From: a virus
Virus genome (UHGV): UHGV-0200725
Length of the DNA: 39,875 bases
Direction: 5' to 3' (one strand)
Of this stretch, positions 1-39,875 are shown in pieces (position 1 is the stretch's first letter; each line of letters begins with the position of its first letter). A program made the position numbers and the translations under genes. The notes below the pieces were generated by a model. The model had not been told where the DNA came from, did not search any database, and saw only the letters and a program-made list of their open reading frames with translations.

Positions 1-309
1 TTGGGTAGGATGAAAATGGATATAACACCCTTACTTCATGCACTTTGTGCTGTGGCTGCGCAGCTACTGATTGGTCTTTTTACCGGGAACTGGGCTTACG
101 GAGCGATAGCCGGTTGTACGTTCTTCATTGCGCGTGAACACACCCAGGCAGAATATCGCTGGATTGAAATGTTCGGACATGGCAAGCGTATGAATATGCC
201 GTGGTGGGGCGGTTTTGATCCGCGCGTGTGGGATTTGGCAAGCCTTATGGATTTTTCTGTGCCAGTGGTGGCGTGTCTGCTGGTCTGGCTGTTGATCCGT
301 TCAACATAA
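1..309 (+). CDS. 3' part of a gene for a small hydrophobic (probable inner-membrane) protein; likely host flank or boundary gene, 5' end outside window
   Basis: Frame open from position 1 to TAA at 307-309; translation has two hydrophobic helices; no family recognised. Confidence 0.3.
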   Translation: MGRMKMDITPLLHALCAVAAQLLIGLFTGNWAYGAIAGCTFFIAREHTQAEYRWIEMFGHGKRMNMPWWGGFDPRVWDLASLMDFSVPVVACLLVWLLIRST

Positions 310-498
310 AAGCCGCAGCAACTTGTCATGGCAGAATACTGCGGCTGGCTGGTGAACTTCCGATAGTGCGAGTATTGAATGATTTCCAGCCGTTACCGAT
401 TTTACTATGTTTTCAGTAGAATGCTTAGACAAAACTGAGGCGCACAAAGCTTTGCACTGGATTGCAAGACTTTGTGCTATTCGATAGTTTAAGGTCGC

Positions 499-1692
499 TC
501 ACTCTACCTTTTCATCAAGCCAGTCCGCCCACCATTGCATCATTTCTCTGCGCTTATCGAGATACTGAGCATGGTTGTAAATTCCACGTACAGATCCGCC
601 GTTGGCATGTGCCAGTTGCACTTCAATGGCGTCGGCAGGCCATTCGTGCTCGTTCATAATCGTGCTGAATTCATGCCTGAATCCGTGACCGCTTTCCAGA
701 CCTTCATAGCCGATTTGTTTGATCACAAGTAGCACCGCGTTCTCGCAGATTGGCTTCTTCTTATCGTTGCGCCCGGAAAAAACAAACTCTGATACTGGTT
801 TAGTGATTGAGCTTAGTGTAGTGAGAAGTTCAACCACCTGGTCTGACATCGGGACAACATGAATTTTGCGTCCCTTCATCACACTGGCGTCGATGGTGAT
901 AATCCTGTTTTCAAAATCGACGTTCTTCCATAGCATGGAACGAAGCTCTTTTGTTCTTAGGGCTGTGTAGCGTAAAACTTTGGTCGCAATGAGCGATACG
1001 ATACTTCCTGAAAATGTTGCAAGTGCTTTGTTGAATGCCGGGATCTGGTCGGCAGGTAAAAATGGGAAGTTCTTCTTGCGGTATCCCTTCATGGCGTCAG
1101 CAAGGTCAGGTGCCGGGTTATATTTAGCCCTACCAGTGACAATAGCGTAACGGAAAACCTCGCCGCATCTTCTGCGGGCTTTGTTGGCTCGCTCCATTGC
1201 ACCGCGATCTTCAAATCTACGGATTACTTCCAGCAGTTGCATCGGCTCAATATCCTGAATTTCAAGGCCGCCGATGATAGGTAAAATGTCGTCATCAAAC
1301 ATTTTTGCAAGTTCAGTCGCATACCCTACTGACCAGACTTGCTTCTTGTGCTCGTACCATTCCTTGTAAATCGCACTAAAGGAATTGTTGTTAGACGAAG
1401 CCTTTTTCGCTTTTACCGGATCGATGCCAACCGAGATGTCTTTCCTCGCGGTCCATGCTTTATCTCTTGCCTCCTGCAAAGTCATAAGCGGATATTTTCC
1501 GACGGTCAGGATTTTCTCCTTACCGTCAATCTTGTAGCGAAGCTGCCATACCTTTTTCCCGGATACAGGAACATAAAGGTACAGGCCATTACCATCGAGA
1601 AGGCGGTATGGTTTTTCTTTCGGCTTTGCTGCTTCAATCTGCTTAACGGTGAGCATGGGTAAAAATCCGGTGGGTAAAATTATTTTATCCAC
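499..1692 (-). CDS. int: Tyrosine site-specific integrase (P4/CP4-57-like family)
   Basis: 397-aa ORF; N-terminal arm-binding-like region (KQIEAAKPKEKPYRLLDGNGLYLYV) and C-terminal catalytic region with conserved R...H..R..Y spacing (HGFRHEF...RGIYNHAQY); track start at 1692 is GTG, Met13 at 1656 is an alternative start. Confidence 0.9.
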   Translation of the reverse strand: MDKIILPTGFLPMLTVKQIEAAKPKEKPYRLLDGNGLYLYVPVSGKKVWQLRYKIDGKEKILTVGKYPLMTLQEARDKAWTARKDISVGIDPVKAKKASSNNNSFSAIYKEWYEHKKQVWSVGYATELAKMFDDDILPIIGGLEIQDIEPMQLLEVIRRFEDRGAMERANKARRRCGEVFRYAIVTGRAKYNPAPDLADAMKGYRKKNFPFLPADQIPAFNKALATFSGSIVSLIATKVLRYTALRTKELRSMLWKNVDFENRIITIDASVMKGRKIHVVPMSDQVVELLTTLSSITKPVSEFVFSGRNDKKKPICENAVLLVIKQIGYEGLESGHGFRHEFSTIMNEHEWPADAIEVQLAHANGGSVRGIYNHAQYLDKRREMMQWWADWLDEKVE

Positions 1693-1911
1693 TTTTTACC
1701 CGTCATGGAGTGCGGCTGTCAACGATCTGACGCGAACCATTACGAACTGTGAATCTACGGAAGGCTTGATATTCAGGGGATTTTGCGGACTGGTACGGAT
1801 GGGAGCGAACTGATAAATGGTGTCCCCTGCAGACATCTACTTGAAGCGGCAGGGGATTGATTGGAATGGTGTTTTTTAGGTGTGAGAAATATTTTACCCG
1901 CTATTTTACCC
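1657..1911. promoter_or_regulatory. Five copies of a 9-mer (A/T)TTTTACCC / GGGTAAAA(A/T) bracketing the int start and alpA 3' end; candidate Int arm-type or AlpA binding sites
   Basis: GGGTAAAAA 1657-1665, GGGTAAAAT 1672-1680, TTTTTACCC 1693-1701, ATTTTACCC 1891-1899 and 1903-1911, read directly. Confidence 0.3.
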
Positions 1912-2983: not shown

Positions 2984-3819
2984 AAATCACCCACCTTAGG
3001 CGCAGCTGAGACAGCAACATTCCAGAACTCAGAAAACATATTGTATGCACCAGATAGATTGGAAGTGGCATACCCTCCAAGCTCACTTCTAATCTGAACG
3101 GCTCTCATCATTTCCGGTGTTAACTCCTTCGGCACCATAACCCAACCATCCGGAGTTACCGGATAGTTGCCAGCCAGTCTACGCAAAACAGCCTTAATCG
3201 CATCAATACGGTCATCATCGCAACTTTCCAGCGTATCTATGCGGTCGAGCATGATGATTGCGTTATCAATATCAGGATTGCCGGTCCACTCATTACCGCG
3301 ATTGGATTCGACAGCCAGGTTGCCGTATACTGTTTGATTCTCGGCTTTACCCAGTCTGTCGTCGCTGCATGAATGCCCTTCCAGCCAGGCCAGTGCTTGT
3401 CGCATGAAATACGCAATATGCTTGCCGTGGTAATCGTCTTCATCGATGTGAAAAGCGATACTGCGGATGTATTCAATTGCGTTTTCAATGGCCTCTAACG
3501 CTATCGGCGCTGGCGGAGTGGTATATAGTTTTCGACATTTGTATATCCAACCGGCATGGTCAGGCGTGTCTGTAAAGCGCAAATCGTCTTCGTAGCAATC
3601 ACGACTTCGTTCTTTCCATTCCGTCCACGGAACACCGCTATTCCAGGTGGGGCGAGTGCAGGACTGATACAGAACAGGCTCTGCTTCCAGCGATGCCAGT
3701 GCAATTCGTGCCAGTTCCCTAAGATTTTCGCTATATGGTGAAGTATTATCACGATGGATTATGTGATTAGCTGTATCTATGAGAACTTGCTTTTGTTCTT
3801 CTCTGTTCATAGTGGTCAT
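2980..3819 (-). CDS. Hypothetical protein (279 aa), acidic, unknown function
   Basis: Long ORF in the coupled early-left chain; no family recognised. Confidence 0.7.
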   Translation of the reverse strand: MTTMNREEQKQVLIDTANHIIHRDNTSPYSENLRELARIALASLEAEPVLYQSCTRPTWNSGVPWTEWKERSRDCYEDDLRFTDTPDHAGWIYKCRKLYTTPPAPIALEAIENAIEYIRSIAFHIDEDDYHGKHIAYFMRQALAWLEGHSCSDDRLGKAENQTVYGNLAVESNRGNEWTGNPDIDNAIIMLDRIDTLESCDDDRIDAIKAVLRRLAGNYPVTPDGWVMVPKELTPEMMRAVQIRSELGGYATSNLSGAYNMFSEFWNVAVSAAPKVGDL

Positions 3820-27399: not shown

Positions 27400-27660
27400 A
27401 TGACACACATGATCTTTCGTCATGGCGACATGAAGAAGTGGAAAGGCGTTGGCTACGACTTTGAAATCGTGAAAGCCGAAGAGCTTCAGGAATATCTGGA
27501 TGCTGGCTGGTTTGCACATCCTGATGATCTTCTGAAGGATGTTGCAGAGCCAGATCCAGAGCCAGAGCCAGAGCCAGATCCAGAGCCAGAAGAAAAACAG
27601 CGTAAAAAGCCTGGTCGAAAACCTAAGGCGGCAGCAGATGAACCTGACAACGAAGGGTGA
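27400..27660 (+). CDS. Small acidic protein with (PE/PD) dipeptide repeat and basic tail (86 aa)
   Basis: ATG 27400 preceded by GGAGA; translation [86 protein letters not shown]. Confidence 0.55.
27547..27588 (+). repeat. Seven tandem hexamers (GAGCCA/GATCCA) encoding the PE/PD repeat
   Basis: GAGCCA GATCCA GAGCCA GAGCCA GAGCCA GATCCA GAGCCA read directly at 27547-27588. Confidence 0.9.
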
Positions 27661-37238: not shown

Positions 37239-39311
37239 ATGACAGACATTACAGCCAATGTTGTAGTGAGCATGCCTTCGCAACTCTTCACTATGGCTCG
37301 TTCTTTTAAAGCCGTAGCCAATGGCAAAATCTATATCGGTAAAATTGACACTGACCCGGTAAATCCTGAAAACCAGATTCAGGTTTATATAGAGAACGAA
37401 GACGGTTCTCACGTTCCTGTTTCGCAACCAATCATCATTAATGCGGCTGGTTACCCGGTATATAACGGACAGATTGCCAAGTTCGTAACTGTGCAAGGCC
37501 ATTCGATGGCTGTTTATGATGCATACGGTGTGCAGCAGTTCTATTTTCCTAATGTGCTGAAGTATGACCCGGATCAGTTGCGACAGCAATTATTAAACCC
37601 TGACACTGGCCTAGGAGATGCGCTTGTTATTGTTAAACAGCCATATGCTGATTCTGTACCTATTACTCAACATCAGCACAACACCTATCTCCTTACCCCT
37701 TACCACTTCGGAGCAAAGGGAGATGGTATTGCAGATGACACTCTTGCCCTAAACCGCTGGTCCAATTGCGGAGCTAAGGTACTCTATTGGCCAGCAGGAA
37801 AATATCTGGTGAGCCCTACAAATGGTGTTTCTCTGGATATGGATAACTACCATACAGGGGATTCCGCACTAACGGCGTGCGTAACCGTTCCCTATGGCGT
37901 GAAAATTTATACGGCTGGGACAGAAACCCAGTTATGCGTGAAGGATGCTGACTCAGCATCGACCGTAGGTCTGGCCGTTAGCTACCCGGAGTCAAGTTAT
38001 TCCCAGGGAGAAACCGACATCGGAAAATTCATGATTCGCCTGGAAAACGGAAATGGTCGGTACGGTATTCTTACTCCACTCAGGGAGGAAATGTTCACTG
38101 CGCACCGGGCGAAGTTCAAATTAGGAGCGCATTTCGGTCCTCAACAGGGGCGTGATGACCTGACGGTGCTACAGTATTCGTGGGTAAATGGCATGCTGAT
38201 TGGCGACGCTTTTAGCGGCTCAGTGCATGTCACTGGATACGGCAGCTATAACGTGCAGCAGGTTGAAGGTACGCAATTCCAGTGCGTGGCCGTTAAGATG
38301 AAGTCCGTTCGAGGTAACGTAGGTGTAGACATCAGATTCAACACAAACAACTGGTGGAAGTTTGTCGAACTGAGTGACGGCGTTGAAGGGTTTGTTGTCA
38401 AGGACAGCGAAGGGCTTGGGGCATTTGTTGGAATCGACCTAACCAACCCAGCCAGCGAGCCAGGTGGATTTATCGATAACGTACACGTCAACGTTAAGCA
38501 AAACGGAGTACGAGCCAGAAACAGGCCATCCCTGCAAATCGGAAACATTGAAGTCTATAAAAGTGATGGATTTGCCACTGACCTTGTTTACGATGCGGTG
38601 CTTCTGGTTGACTGCCAGGAAGTGACTATCAACTCTATTCACGCAATCGTCGGCAACTCAATCACAAATGCTCAGTCAGTAGTTAACTCGACAAACAGCA
38701 CATTCCGCCTGAACTCATACTTTGCGCAAAACATCAGGTTCGTCGATTTTGTGGTTAATAGCCCTGACTGCTATGTCGGAGAGGGGACAATTAACCAGGT
38801 CGAGGCAGTTCACTCACTTTCTGGATCACAAAGCAACGACTTCCACGGTAGTGATGTTCTGGTTAGATCCTACAGAAACAACGTTCGCCCACTTTACGCA
38901 GTGATGGATTCCGCTTTCAACAGGGCAAGGGCGAGGTTTCCACAAAATACAAGCCTCCAGGTGAGAACCTTTCTCGACTACACTGTGGCAGCAGCTGGGA
39001 CTTTAACAATAGAACCAAGGCTTGACCCCTCCAGGTACTACATCATCATGAGTGCTGGTACAGGTGCCTTCACCTATTCAATTGAGCTGGATAAAGTGTC
39101 TGCCGTAGTTGGTGATATTGTTTACATAAAGATAGCCGGGTCATCATCTGCTAACCCAACAGTTTTGGTTAAAAATGGTATTGGTGGGACAACGCTCAGC
39201 ACATTCAATAATATCGGTCCGATTCGTTTGAATTGTGCTTACAGATTTAATGAGTCAGGTAACTGGGTGGCCTACTACATTACCCAAAGCGTTGAAACCA
39301 CTTATGGCTAA
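37239..39311 (+). CDS. 9: Tailspike: P22 gp9-type head-binding N-terminal domain with a divergent receptor-binding body
   Basis: 690-aa ORF; first roughly 115 residues ([11 protein letters not shown]...VLKYDPDQ) match the P22 tailspike head-binding domain; remainder is Gly/Asn/Val-rich beta-helix-like sequence unlike P22. Confidence 0.85.
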
Positions 39312-39490
39312 TAGTCATTATCAATATCCTGCAGAAGTGACCTAACGACAAGCGTCGCCACGATGACAACCACGGAAAGGATGCCGATAACCCACCACAT
39401 AACTTACCCGCGCAAAATGAATGGACAAAAATCATCCGCCGATTAACCCTAAGCTTTGCATATTTTTTGAAGATGTGACTGTTGTGTGGC

Positions 39491-39531
39491 AAAAAATTAG
39501 CGCAAGAGGACAAAAAATCACCTTGCGCTAA
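39491..39531 (-). terminator. Possible rho-independent terminator on the minus strand
   Basis: 10-bp inverted repeat TTAGCGCAAG / CTTGCGCTAA with 15-nt loop; T-run follows on the minus strand (A-run 39491-39496 on plus). Confidence 0.35.
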
Positions 39532-39668
39532 TGCTCTGTCTCAGGTCACTAATACCATCTAAGTAGTTGATTCATAGTGACTGGATATGTTGTGTTTTGT
39601 CGCGTTTTGCAGTCTATTATTTAATCATTAAGTAATCTAATGCTATGATTTTTAAATTATTTATGTGA

Positions 39669-39848
39669 TTTTGTCATCCTTTAGGTAAAGAAGGTGAACG
39701 GTATTACACTGTAGATTATTCTGGTGTTACTGGCTTGCTTGTTCAGGTAGCCAGAGAGTCAGACGACAGAATAACAGCACTGGAAGAAGAAAACGCAGAA
39801 TTAAGACAAATGTTATCTGCAATTGAGGCGGCGCTTGCGTCTAAATAA
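39669..39848 (+). pseudogene. 3' remnant of a tail-fibre/tailspike gene: C-terminal part of an intramolecular-chaperone (peptidase S74-like) domain, no start codon
   Basis: 59 in-frame codons after a TGA with no initiator; translation ...GERYYTVDYSGVTGLLVQVARESDDRITALEEENAELRQMLSAIEAALASK resembles chaperone-domain C-termini as I recall them. Confidence 0.35.
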
Positions 39849-39854
39849 TATTAA

Positions 39855-39875
39855 GGGGCCGAGCGCCCCGTTTTA
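39855..39875 (+). terminator. Rho-independent terminator after the remnant (cut by window end)
   Basis: GGGGC-CGAGC-GCCCC followed by GTTTTA. Confidence 0.5.

Follow-up and report, generated by a model that had tools for sequence, protein, structure and literature searches.

A probable fossil attR and a conserved 30-codon gene between the tailspike and integrase genes of a P22-like phage

Four dissimilar features lie together downstream of the tailspike gene in the virus genome UHGV-0200725, a sequence of 39,875 nt referred to here in its entirety as the window, and raise the question of what assembled them. A preliminary description, made from the sequence alone, listed an AT-rich segment, a start-less frame (39669-39848) likened to the C-terminal end of a tail-fibre chaperone domain, a possible minus-strand terminator (39491-39531) and a minus-strand micro-ORF (39400-39308) encoding a hydrophobic peptide, and attributed them to a past module replacement at the right end of a prophage. 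All four are present at these coordinates; the start-less frame does resemble a fibre C-terminus, and the micro-ORF is conserved. The homology of the interval to the attP of lambda and HK022, and the circular closure of the genome, had been overlooked. Taken together, the evidence makes it quite probable that the interval combines a fossil attR, produced by an Int crossover with a tail-fibre gene, with a real 30-aa gene linked to receptor-binding genes.

A closed genome with an argW integration module

The window is the closed genome of a P22-like phage, in which position 39875 joins position 1. An integrated prophage, with a right-end attR lying in a resident prophage, was the first idea considered, and was ruled out when a wrap-around test found the genome to be closed. 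Of the replacement event originally proposed, the exchange of modules is retained, but not its location at a prophage right end, as the interval lies within a closed genome, with approximately 1 kb separating it from the integrase gene's 3' end.

This phage has a working integration module, comprising argW as the target, an IntS-type integrase and the attP core at 1817-1832, a 16-mer for which the number of matches expected by chance is 0. The same att core has been reported for Kapi1, Sf6, HK620 and KplE1 (PMC8787464). The integrase gene, which probably starts at the ATG at 1662, is 96% identical at the DNA level to that of phage 611R6, which adjoins tRNA-Arg and yfdC, and the homology between the window and the 611R6 prophage ends 12 nt into tRNA-Arg. 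The hairpin 3' of intS is homologous to lambda 27472-27511 and to the corresponding sequence of Gally. On the far side of the 39875/1 junction, the phrog_1443 gene follows a complete fibre gene both in Tritos and at argW in E. coli PEC41, and follows a fibre fragment in 611R6, E10 and SB0258h1. The features of the interval and its surroundings are listed in Table 1.

Table 1. Coordinates of features in and around the tailspike-integrase interval of the window
Feature	Coordinates	Strand	Basis or remark
98-aa hypothetical membrane protein, phrog_1443	13..309	+	PHROG E 1e-57
Strong hairpin directly 3' of intS, probable int terminator	441..485	-	fold dG -34.7 kcal/mol, z -4.8
IntS-type tyrosine integrase, the phage's working integrase	499..1692	-	Pfam Arm-DNA-bind_3, Phage_int_M, Phage_integrase
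Working attP core ATGGTGTCCCCTGCAG, equal to the 3' end of tRNA-Arg argW	1817..1832	+	exact 16-mer match
Tailspike, 690 aa	37239..39311	+	N-terminal P22-type head-binding domain, Pfam Head_binding E 4e-67
Micro-ORF, gene for a predicted 30-aa single-helix membrane peptide	39308..39400	-	convergent with tailspike, 4-nt overlap with tailspike stop
Spacer from micro-ORF start to sib, part of the tailspike/micro-ORF module	39401..39486		contiguous with tailspike in ETEC prophages
sib/tI intrinsic terminator hairpin with extended outer stem	39487..39543	-	homologous to lambda/HK022 retroregulator
Arm-type Int site P1, putative fossil P arm	39537..39556	+	18/20 identity to lambda misc_binding 'int 1' (27583-27602), via alignment
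IHF site, presumed H1, AATCAACTACTTA	39560..39572	-	regex scan; exact WATCAANNNNTTR consensus
Arm-type Int site P2, putative fossil P arm	39569..39588	+	19/20 identity to lambda misc_binding 'int 2' (27615-27634)
IHF-like site at H2 position, AATCATAGCATTA	39638..39650	-	regex scan; 1 mismatch to consensus
Core-type Int site C, ATCCTTT, last attP-derived bases	39676..39682	+	identical in HK022 and Gally attP
7-bp overlap (crossover) region	39683..39689	+	alignment and junction table
Start-less fibre-gene 3' end, last 54 codons and stop	39683..39848	+	S74 intramolecular-chaperone tail fibre of lambda-like siphovirus
B'-type core site GAAGGTG, fibre-gene-derived	39690..39696	+	5/7 identity to attP C' (TAAGTTG)
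GC hairpin GGGGCCGAGCGCCCC, then GTTTTATT across the 39875/1 junction	39855..39869	+	terminator scan

The junction between attP and fibre-gene sequence

Alignment indicates that the AT-rich segment and the minus-strand terminator are parts of a single unit, namely the half of an HK022-type attP that comprises sib/tI, the P arm and the core. Positions 39487-39696 are 97.2% identical to the sib-attP of the P22-like phage Gally, in which int and xis follow directly, 88.6% identical to the annotated sib and attP of HK022, and 83.5% identical to the lambda sequence. The elements of this half (tI/sib, P1, P2, the IHF sites, C and the 7-bp overlap) have the order and spacing found in HK022 and lambda, and the retained P arm is complete up to the core. 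The IHF site at 39560-39572, which we take to be the H1 of lambda attP, is identical in the aligned lambda sequence. The terminator consists of a 12-bp stem (39497-39532) followed by six U residues (39496-39491), with a folding energy of -29.6 kcal/mol (z -4.1), and in alignment it corresponds to the HK022 feature annotated as 'sib transcription processing site' (X51962 190-239), in keeping with its earlier identification; the neighbouring segment (39541-39675) is likewise as AT-rich as described, having a GC content of 0.289 against 0.477 window-wide. A P' arm was not found in the window, nor did tblastn detect an HK022 Int or Xis there at better than E 0.5, and Rfam returned no family at E <= 1 for 39000-39875.

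From 39683 onwards, the window is instead 97% identical at the DNA level to the 3' end of the Tritos gene TRITO_21 and to related fibre genes. Residues 6-59 of the frame at 39669-39848 correspond to positions 293-346 of the 346-aa phrog_4563 (E 2e-28), and C-terminal positions of four other tail-fibre PHROGs are matched as well, which agrees with the first assignment of this frame to the end of a fibre chaperone. The fragment has no match to Pfam S74 (PF13884), a domain lying upstream of the breakpoint in the full-length protein: in TRITO_21, Peptidase_S74 is found at aa 227-278, just before the stretch that matches the remnant. No start codon precedes 39735 in the remnant frame and, being without both a start codon and a fibre shaft, the remnant would be non-functional as a protein. 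The GC hairpin that follows is kept across the 39875/1 junction in Tritos, 611R6 and PEC41, and is probably the fibre gene's own terminator, now forming the end of the late operon.

The preliminary description derived this remnant from a displaced fibre or spike gene of the P22-like phage itself, its former 3' end having been left at the right end when the present tailspike module arrived. In its favour, exchange of tailspike modules has taken place on the left side of sib, as three different tailspikes precede the same fossil. However, the region belongs to the interior of a closed genome and is not a prophage end, and a near-complete attP half (sib, P1, H1, P2 and core) separates the tailspike from the remnant. 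Moreover, it is lambda-like siphoviruses, possessing J and stf genes, and not P22-like phages that have the intact S74 fibre gene. Such an origin is extremely unlikely, and the remnant is better read as the B' side of an Int crossover within the fibre gene of a lambda-like siphovirus.

In the alignments, the switch from attP-type to fibre-type sequence occurs between 39682 and 39690, and so spans exactly the 7-bp overlap common to both parents. This reads AGGTGAA in HK022, Gally, 611R6, E10, SB0258h1 and the intact fibre genes, and AGGTAAA in the window and in the PEC41 junction, the latter two matching the cognate attP at 6/7 positions. Matches to intact fibre genes begin exactly at 39683 in approximately 680 E. 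coli genomes. To the right of the overlap, GAAGGTG resembles C' more closely than does the flank of any other AGGTGAA site in the loci examined; to the left, the fibre genes of Tritos and PEC41 have GATCGGA where the window has C, a B-side core site that equals C at only 1/7 positions. Phage 611R6 has the same junction, as do 7 of 5,426 E. coli genomes, and three different tailspikes are found in front of it; carriers of the identical junction include 611R6, E10, SB0258h1, PEC41 and one IMG/VR contig, which between them have three different tailspike modules. The partner layout, stf-hyp-fibre-hyp-intS-tRNA-Arg-yfdC, is intact at the argW locus of PEC41. The reciprocal, attL-type junction is absent from the 5,426 E. 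coli genomes, IMG/VR and a metagenome collection, so that the event is reconstructed from one product only and, since all carriers have one and the same junction, from no independent replicate.

These observations suggest an ancestor that was a P22-like phage with an HK022-type sib-attP-int-xis module, as in present-day Gally. Its own Int would have recombined attP, inside the overlap AGGTGAA, with a look-alike site, AGGTGAA-GAAGGTG, within an S74 tail-fibre gene belonging to a lambda-like phage or prophage having the layout fibre-hyp-intS-attP(argW). Such a crossover would join tailspike-sib-P arm-C-overlap to B'-fibre 3' end-hyp-intS-attP, exchanging the HK022-type integrase module for one of argW type, while completion of a viable hybrid would have taken a further crossover, hypothetical and of the homologous kind, in the early region. 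In the resulting phage, the tI hairpin probably still acts as a leftward terminator, shielding the micro-ORF and tailspike from intS read-through, just as the terminator brought in with the fibre gene probably still ends the late operon.

The same junction might have arisen with no involvement of Int, through ordinary illegitimate recombination at a microhomology or a module swap at a mosaic boundary, its coincidence with the att core then being due to chance. Lambdoid phages are highly mosaic (an 86-nt intS 3' fossil, for example, adjoins the sib of Gally), the B-side core likeness of 1/7 is poor, and one product of one event is seen, the reciprocal junction being absent. However, the switch falls within the 7-bp overlap of an attP of approximately 230 bp, both parents have the exact 7-mer together with a 5/7 C'-like flank, and the P arm was kept whole up to the core. 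Microhomologies of 7 nt are also plentiful, two 8-kb stretches sharing them at approximately 5,700 position pairs; given these thousands of alternatives, microhomology by itself does not explain why the attP overlap should have been hit. Recombination of this kind is accordingly considered unlikely, and an Int-promoted crossover remains the preferred reading of the junction.

Whatever its past activity, the fossil attR now appears to be recombinationally dead, as it is without a P' arm and a cognate Int and Xis, and the overlap of the window copy has a G-to-A change. It has the alternative of remaining usable when an HK022-type Int and Xis are supplied in trans by a co-resident phage, and so of acting as a hotspot for the exchange of tailspike and integrase modules. 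In favour of this, P1, H1, P2 and C are intact, the overlap is still AGGTGAA in most carriers, and different tailspike modules have been joined at or near sib. Furthermore, ETEC prophages at lambda attB (ybhB-bioA) have a true attR of HK022/lambda type with the same tailspike/micro-ORF/sib block, and their sequence changes to lambda-type att at 39623, a position within the P arm. Boundaries located in sib or the P arm nevertheless point to homologous exchange rather than exchange at the core, and no core recombinants other than the founding one have been seen. Lambda-family Int also requires overlap identity, which the mutated AGGTAAA of the window does not offer. Continuing use of the site is thus decidedly unlikely, and the reading of a dead attR is favoured.

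The 30-codon gene and its receptor-binding neighbours

A lone ORF of 30 codons is unremarkable in the window, where dozens are listed, and it is family conservation that sets the micro-ORF (ATG at 39400-39398) apart. The family, a small one of enterobacterial phages, was found through degenerate DNA pattern scans and an exhaustive HMMER search of 1.84e9 proteins, the latter giving seven clusters, N-terminal variants included, of which six are exactly 30 aa in length. Members with exactly 30 codons occur in nine IMG/VR contigs, Phytobacter massiliensis and E. coli 746, and the family follows the pattern MWWVIGIL...RS...D-DDY, with an acidic tail of the form ...R-S-x-h-x-D-x-D-[DN]-D-Y. Every enterobacterial or phage match to the N-terminal pattern was a 30-codon ORF ending D-[DN]-D-Y, whereas 14 chance matches in other taxa, which served as a control, lay in ORFs of 22-100 aa without this ending. 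The length is held without indels through approximately 40% divergence, while TAG, TAA and TGA are all used as stops; between subtypes, DNA similarity is limited to the ORF, from ATG to stop, and the flanks are unrelated. Values of pN/pS are 0.35-0.45 at pS 0.6-0.8 (pN 0.25-0.34), and approach 0.9-1.0 in certain closer pairs, in which changes are few. This retention of frame, length and amino acid pattern through divergence, amid unrelated flanks, indicates that the micro-ORF is a real gene for a predicted small membrane peptide, as had been suspected, with the sequence originally given for it.

The family has no annotation in Pfam, NCBIfam or PHROGs, nor at the RefSeq copies examined. Among deposited phages (50,697 records), no match was found by tblastn with the peptide or blastn with 39305-39490, and the L016-type copy had no match in complete E. 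coli genomes. A likeness to CydX/AppX, noted in the MW...IL N-terminus, was dropped as there was no Pfam match. In strain CFSAN018748, homology breaks inside the micro-ORF.

The conservation could alternatively be that of an untranslated DNA or RNA element at the 3' ends of receptor-binding (RBP) genes, such as the 3' UTR or the terminator of a late operon. Consistent with this, the first eight codons (24 nt) are near-invariant even at wobble positions, although this could reflect recent spread rather than selection. The window copy also has a weak Shine-Dalgarno sequence (GGGTAAGTT-ATG) and no promoter: none of consensus type was detected in a minus-strand scan of 39401-39486, and the surroundings of the micro-ORF, scanned for promoters and terminators in the window and in four relatives, showed chance-level counts and no consistent promoter. 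Against it, no hairpin with a T-run exists on the RBP strand, several relatives have good Shine-Dalgarno sequences (GAGGAA, GAGGTGAGGG, GGGGG), and neither the strictly fixed codon number with three different stops, nor the persistence of the R-S...D-x-D-D-Y pattern alongside synonymous variation, suits an untranslated element. This explanation is very unlikely, and a translated gene is preferred.

The gene is situated downstream of tI, and in ETEC prophages at lambda attB the spacer and tailspike are contiguous, with 98.8-99.5% identity to the window. In all loci with phage context, the neighbour of the micro-ORF is a convergent, abutting RBP gene, belonging to one of several unrelated PHROG families and overlapping it by 4-7 nt; in an epsilon15-like prophage, the micro-ORF lies between the tail protein gene and holin. 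The receptor-binding part of the window tailspike, aa 117-690, travels between phage types together with the micro-ORF: it shares 98% identity with the C-terminal part of the epsilon15-like tail protein found in E. coli EC5654, and 86% with a third RBP, encoded by IMG/VR contig L014, while the N-terminal domains of the three proteins are unrelated. Receptor-binding domain and micro-ORF hence move together across three virion-adaptor types, and the family is coupled to receptor-binding domains in podovirus, epsilon15-like and siphovirus backgrounds.

The peptide had been likened to small membrane toxins, and it might be a type I toxin-like product under antisense control, possibly exerted by the convergent tailspike transcript extending over its 3' end. 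It is small, with a single hydrophobic helix, and since its gene converges on the RBP gene and overlaps it, read-through transcripts are bound to overlap in antisense. Yet it shows no likeness to the Hok, Ldr, Ibs, ShoB, TisB, Zor or DinQ-type families in Pfam or NCBIfam, has no PHROG match, and is accompanied by no Rfam antitoxin RNA (E <= 1). Its C-terminal tail is strongly acidic, whereas those of type I membrane toxins are usually polar or basic, and the fixed synteny with RBP genes suits an accessory function better than an addiction module. The absence of homology to known toxin families and the acidic tail both tell against the proposed toxin character, which is improbable.

An accessory function is preferred. 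The product would be a single-helix inner-membrane peptide with an acidic tail and, at a guess drawn from its position only, may be a moron-type accessory with the cell envelope as its target, where it would either alter or block the pathway of the receptor used by the adjacent tailspike, or else exclude superinfecting phage, in analogy to the 31-aa Iap peptide of phage D3. Tentatively, the MWW...DDDY peptides might represent a new class of receptor-linked accessory, forming a two-gene cassette with a receptor-binding domain and interfering either with the biosynthesis or export (for instance at Wzy, Wzz or WaaL) of the same polysaccharide to which the adjacent tailspike binds, or with DNA entry; this is possible, if doubtful. 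A lysogen or infected cell would in that case be refractory to phages using the same receptor. No wzy-type (wzy-beta) partner gene was found beside the micro-ORF in the loci examined. The family was ruled out as the cause of the O-antigen modification associated with Kapi1, which is without a member, and the small ORF between tailspike and int in that phage, 'hyp24' (Kapi1_068), proved unrelated.

Implications and comparison with known systems

If the preferred reading is correct, the scar is a natural, base-pair-resolved record of an integration-module exchange between temperate phages, in which one step gave both a new integrase and a new chromosomal target, argW in place of the HK022-type site. 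It would provide a mechanistic case for a type of mosaic boundary usually ascribed to unspecified illegitimate recombination, and account for the orphan 'tail fiber domain-containing protein' pseudogenes annotated in P22-like prophages. The micro-ORF family is rated as more important for the future, its members being conserved, unannotated small membrane peptides that are cheap to test (30 aa, with defined cognate tailspikes) and could bring to light a new route to lysogenic conversion or to the exclusion of superinfecting phages.

Among small membrane peptides, the type I toxins (Hok, Ldr, Ibs, ShoB, TisB, ZorO and DinQ) share with the micro-ORF product a small hydrophobic single helix and potential antisense overlap, but have a dedicated antisense sRNA locus, whereas the micro-ORF is distinguished by its acidic tail and fixed RBP synteny. 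The parallel suggested above is Iap of Pseudomonas phage D3, likewise a single-helix temperate-phage peptide of approximately 30 aa in a receptor or O-antigen accessory slot (PMC12004945, PMC4815439), a characterization that the micro-ORF fits. Iap, of 31 aa, blocks Wzy by mimicking TM2 of Wzz (PMC12004945). It is an inhibitor of the Wzy alpha-polymerase, whereas the role suggested for the micro-ORF is a position-based guess, and the host clades differ.

Homology between the remnant and Peptidase_S74 fibres (phrog_4563; PF13884) covers their last 54 residues, C-terminal to the Pfam match, but the remnant differs from them in having neither start codon nor fibre shaft. With the Sf6/HK620/KplE1/Kapi1-type module (intS, attP between int and xis, argW), the window shares an identical att core at the 3' end of argW, an adjacent IntS-type integrase, and an int gene convergent with the end of the tailspike. 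The gap between tailspike and int contains only an unrelated 34-aa ORF in Kapi1, but the putative fossil attR, fibre fragment, hypothetical gene and micro-ORF in the window.

In an HK022 or lambda attR (P-O-B'), B' is bacterial attB sequence, whereas here it would be the interior of the tail-fibre gene of another phage; the junction lies inside a phage genome, adjoining an unrelated integrase, and a cognate Int, Xis, P' arm and attL partner were not found. Both lambda secondary attachment sites and Int-promoted recombination between phages are known from classical genetics. In these, too, crossover takes place in the overlap, with the overlap sequence shared and the core-type sites only partly so. 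Compared with a laboratory lysogen at such a site, the junction described here would be a natural product, inherited in circulating phages, of an event that swapped one integrase module for another.

The tailspike region in a closed genome

When the last 275 and first 2,400 bases of the window were joined and aligned to three relatives, vB_EcoP-611R6 (611R6), E. coli PEC41 and Tritos, the alignments ran unbroken over 39875|1 at 97-99% identity. The window is therefore the full genome of a P22-like phage, circularly closed at 39,875 bp, so the region 3' of the tailspike gene is no prophage end. The 'prophage right end' of the preliminary description instead joins the window start, and gene order has to be read through 39875|1, from tailspike to integrase: tailspike, micro-ORF (minus strand), hairpin, AT-rich stretch, fibre gene fragment, GC hairpin, hypothetical gene, strong hairpin and integrase (minus strand). 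All of the features named in that description were found in the window sequence, confirming its observation of a scar; its interpretation, a past module replacement, was partly right and incomplete. The start-less frame had been read as the C-terminus of a fibre chaperone domain, correctly: the fragment corresponds to positions 293-346 of phrog_4563 (E 2e-28), and the full-length Tritos fibre protein has Peptidase_S74 at aa 227-278.

Features of the tailspike-integrase region (window positions)
Feature	Position	Strand	Remarks
Hypothetical gene	13-309		98 aa, hydrophobic; phrog_1443, function unknown
Strong hairpin 3' of intS	441-485		dG -34.7 kcal/mol, z -4.8
IntS-type integrase	499-1692	minus	
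Working attP core	1817-1832		ATGGTGTCCCCTGCAG; exact match, 0 expected by chance
Tailspike gene	37239-39311		stop TAA
Micro-ORF	39400-39308	minus	30 codons; 4-nt overlap with tailspike stop
Hairpin and U-tract	39491-39532	minus	dG -29.6 kcal/mol, z -4.1
Lambda 'int 1' site	39537-39556		18/20 identical; mapped via alignment to lambda annotation
AT-rich stretch	39541-39675		GC 0.289 vs 0.477 in window
IHF site	39560-39572		exact consensus
Lambda 'int 2' site	39569-39588		19/20 identical; mapped via alignment to lambda annotation
IHF-like site	39638-39650		one mismatch
Start-less frame	39669-39848		last frame of window
GC hairpin, presumed terminator of the fibre gene	39855-39869		plus GTTTTATT across 39875|1

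The core of the working integration module is the same argW core reported for Kapi1, Sf6, HK620 and KplE1, phages whose attP is flanked by int and xis (PMC8787464). The phrog_1443 gene is always found 3' of an S74 fibre gene or fragment (Tritos, PEC41, 611R6, E10, SB0258h1), and in Gally comes after the tailspike; its product may be another accessory membrane protein.

A putative fossil attR joined to a fibre gene

By blastn, positions 39487-39696 share 88.6% identity with a region of HK022 annotated as 'sib transcription processing site' and 'attP site'. Identity rises to 97.2% with Gally, a P22-like phage in which integrase and excisionase directly follow the matching stretch, and is about 83.5% with lambda, whose 'int 1' and 'int 2' sites are P1 and P2 in the usual nomenclature. 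The hairpin, comprising a 12-bp stem, U6 and an extended outer stem, has the same architecture as tI/sib; it matches no Rfam family. Together, the terminator and AT-rich segment make up one half of an attP of HK022 type, while Int, Xis and P' arm of that type were not found in the window.

Over the junction, the window and 611R6 track Gally and HK022 through …TTTTGTC ATCCTTT AGGTGAA, and past this overlap read as the Tritos fibre gene (AGGTGAA GAAGGTG AACG…). The AGGTGAA heptamer is flanked by ATCCTTT and TAAGTTG in attP (HK022, Gally), by GATCGGA and GAAGGTG in the fibre gene (Tritos, PEC41 argW locus), and by ATCCTTT and GAAGGTG in the junction carriers. As attP-specific bases end at 39682 and fibre-specific bases begin at 39690, the exchange falls inside the 7-bp overlap common to both parents; in ~680 E. 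coli genomes where the fibre gene is intact, similarity to the window begins exactly at 39683. Integrases of the lambda family exchange strands exactly in the overlap, where sequence identity is required. Simple microhomology does not account for where the switch lies, since ~5,700 exact 7-mer position pairs are already shared by two 8-kb parental stretches. The AGGTGAA site used has the best C'-like flank (5/7) among all such sites in the loci examined, and a G→A change in the overlap (AGGTAAA), common to the window and PEC41, arose later. The scar is hence best read as the fossil attR of an HK022-type site joined to a foreign fibre gene. The Tritos fibre gene contains the heptamer twice, 9 nt apart (AGGTGAAGAAGGTGAA; locus L005 4001-4016, corresponding to window 39683-39698), and the crossover used only the first copy.

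An intact partner layout is present at the PEC41 argW locus, consisting of stf, a hypothetical gene, a full 1041-bp fibre gene and a further hypothetical gene, then intS, tRNA-Arg and yfdC on the opposite strand; right of the crossover, the window shares this layout (fibre 3' end, hypothetical gene, hairpin, intS, att core). The simplest history would be that Int of a Gally-like P22-like phage recombined its attP with the site in the fibre gene of a lambda-like (pro)phage of this layout, a crossover that gave the P22-like phage the argW integration module. A viable hybrid would need a second, homologous exchange in the early region, which we infer to have occurred.

Direct reading showed an identical junction in 611R6, E10, SB0258h1 and PEC41; of 5,426 complete E. 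coli genomes, only 7 matched a junction-spanning query without interruption, and one IMG/VR contig contained the exact junction pattern. Because its carriers have three different tailspike modules ahead of it, the junction predates the present tailspikes. Searches of E. coli genomes, IMG/VR and metagenomes did not recover the reciprocal junction, an absence that fits a rare, probably single, event. PEC41 is the only complete E. coli genome to match the whole finding (99.7%; L001, sbcB-dacD locus). Its prophage there is heavily deleted: hardly anything separates the cIII/DUF2528 genes from the tailspike, and after the fossil come the hypothetical gene, a HumD pseudogene and dacD; one strain carries both the fossil and, at argW, the intact fibre-hypothetical gene-intS layout. 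The 441-485 hairpin is homologous to sequence immediately left of lambda sib (NC_001416 27472-27511). Gally has the same hairpin and about 86 nt of the intS 3' coding end (L003 3830-3984), a fossil lying between its hypothetical gene and its own sib-attP-int; each type of integrase module has thus left relics in the other's lineage. The scar would represent a base-pair-resolved record of an Int-mediated integrase-module swap.

The terminators may still have roles. Leftward transcripts out of intS would meet the 441-485 hairpin, the GC hairpin and then tI, which would halt residual read-through before antisense entry into the micro-ORF and tailspike. The plus strand of sib has no T-run, and the late transcript probably ends at the presumed terminator of the fibre gene itself.

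Up to 39623, the block of tailspike, micro-ORF and sib shares 98.8% identity with the right end of porcine ETEC prophages. Beyond this point their P arm is of lambda type, leading into a textbook lambda attR (CAGCTTT TTTATAC TAACTTG) and then the ybhB-bioA flank. This argues that homologous recombination within the common sib-P-arm sequence exchanged the tailspike/micro-ORF module now present. Another joint, distinct from the first, lies within these 200 bp in E. coli CFSAN018748 (L009), where homology to the window breaks within the micro-ORF after codon 3 (equivalent to window 39390); this prophage ends beside dacD, and the micro-ORF of this strain has no start of its own.

A small gene beside receptor-binding proteins

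Of 5,426 E. coli genomes, just 21 contain the DNA at 39290-39500, which was found in none of the deposited phages. The E. coli copies of the micro-ORF carry little information because they are nearly identical, differing solely by L22H, of which the window has the rarer L. This exact variant was seen in short contigs (metagenome CDZM01008284.1, L037; Logan contigs L010 and L011), whereas H22 is found in every complete E. coli genome examined and in the remaining contigs with a window-type copy.

Relatives were sought by degenerate pattern scans, which gave the decisive data. All nine IMG/VR matches, one in Phytobacter massiliensis and two from metagenomes are exactly 30 codons long and end D-[DN]-D-Y; 14 matches in unrelated taxa, approximately the number expected by chance, act as a built-in control, and are ORFs of 22-100 aa without this ending. 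When 1.84 billion representative proteins were searched with HMMER in an unbiased way, seven clusters emerged, including the N-terminal variants MWWFIG, MWWIVG and MWWVLG. Six are exactly 30 aa; the seventh (P0010), 45 aa long, has lost the stop after …DDDY and has 15 extra residues, the only length variant seen. Subtypes have unrelated sequence on both flanks, use all three stops (TAG, TAA, TGA) and in several copies have a good Shine-Dalgarno; blastn detects similarity between them only from ATG to stop. Across subtypes, codons 9-30 have pS of 0.6-0.8 vs pN of 0.25-0.34 (ratio 0.35-0.45), values near 1 being confined to close pairs with few changes. A family member of 30 codons with a TTG start (…WWIIGLLIIVVIFAVLVIRSRMQDMDDDY) occurs in E. 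coli 746 (L033, ~3501-3592). Taken together, these sequence comparisons argue strongly for a real, conserved, unannotated small membrane-peptide gene.

The first eight codons (ATG TGG TGG GTT ATC GGC ATC CTT; 39400-39377) are almost invariant, wobble included, in subtypes otherwise about 40% diverged, hinting at extra nucleotide-level constraint, such as a translation initiation region, or at recombination within the stretch. The E. coli 746 copy lies between yghD/gsp genes and an IS3 element, outside any recognisable prophage and about 0.7 kb from an 85-aa acyltransferase fragment, and may be the remnant of a conversion island. The peptide has no match in Pfam, NCBIfam or PHROG, RefSeq annotates nothing at the copies examined, the protein goes unnamed in all sources, and no paper containing its sequence was found.

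At every phage or prophage locus, the micro-ORF is convergent with the 3' end of a receptor-binding protein gene, overlapping it by 4-7 nt or lying within about 70 nt. Partners include siphovirus tail fibres (phrog_1980), several unrelated tailspikes, an epsilon15-like tail protein, with the micro-ORF between its gene and the holin, and, in Phytobacter, a short ORF after a truncated fibre gene. Residues 117-690 of the window tailspike, its receptor-binding portion, match the epsilon15-like protein (C-terminal part) at 98% identity and a third receptor-binding protein at 86%. The N-terminal adaptor of this third protein differs again, and the peptide beside it has diverged in step (8/30 positions), suggesting that receptor-binding domain and micro-ORF move as a cassette.

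The slot occupied by the micro-ORF usually holds conversion genes: 611R6 has an O-acetylase in the equivalent slot, and gtr and oac are known from P22/Sf6-type phages (PMC8787464). The 31-aa phage peptide Iap of D3 is known to block the O-antigen polymerase by mimicking Wzz TM2 (PMC12004945, PMC4815439). From positional analogy alone, it might tentatively be proposed that the product is an envelope-directed accessory peptide involved in conversion or exclusion. A toxin, to which the peptide had been likened, is also conceivable, although nothing found in this analysis supports such a role. It is the peptide family that merits experimental attention. Scar and micro-ORF are both of known kinds, the scar resembling other att-site relics and mosaic joints and the micro-ORF other phage accessory morons, and each is a new instance.
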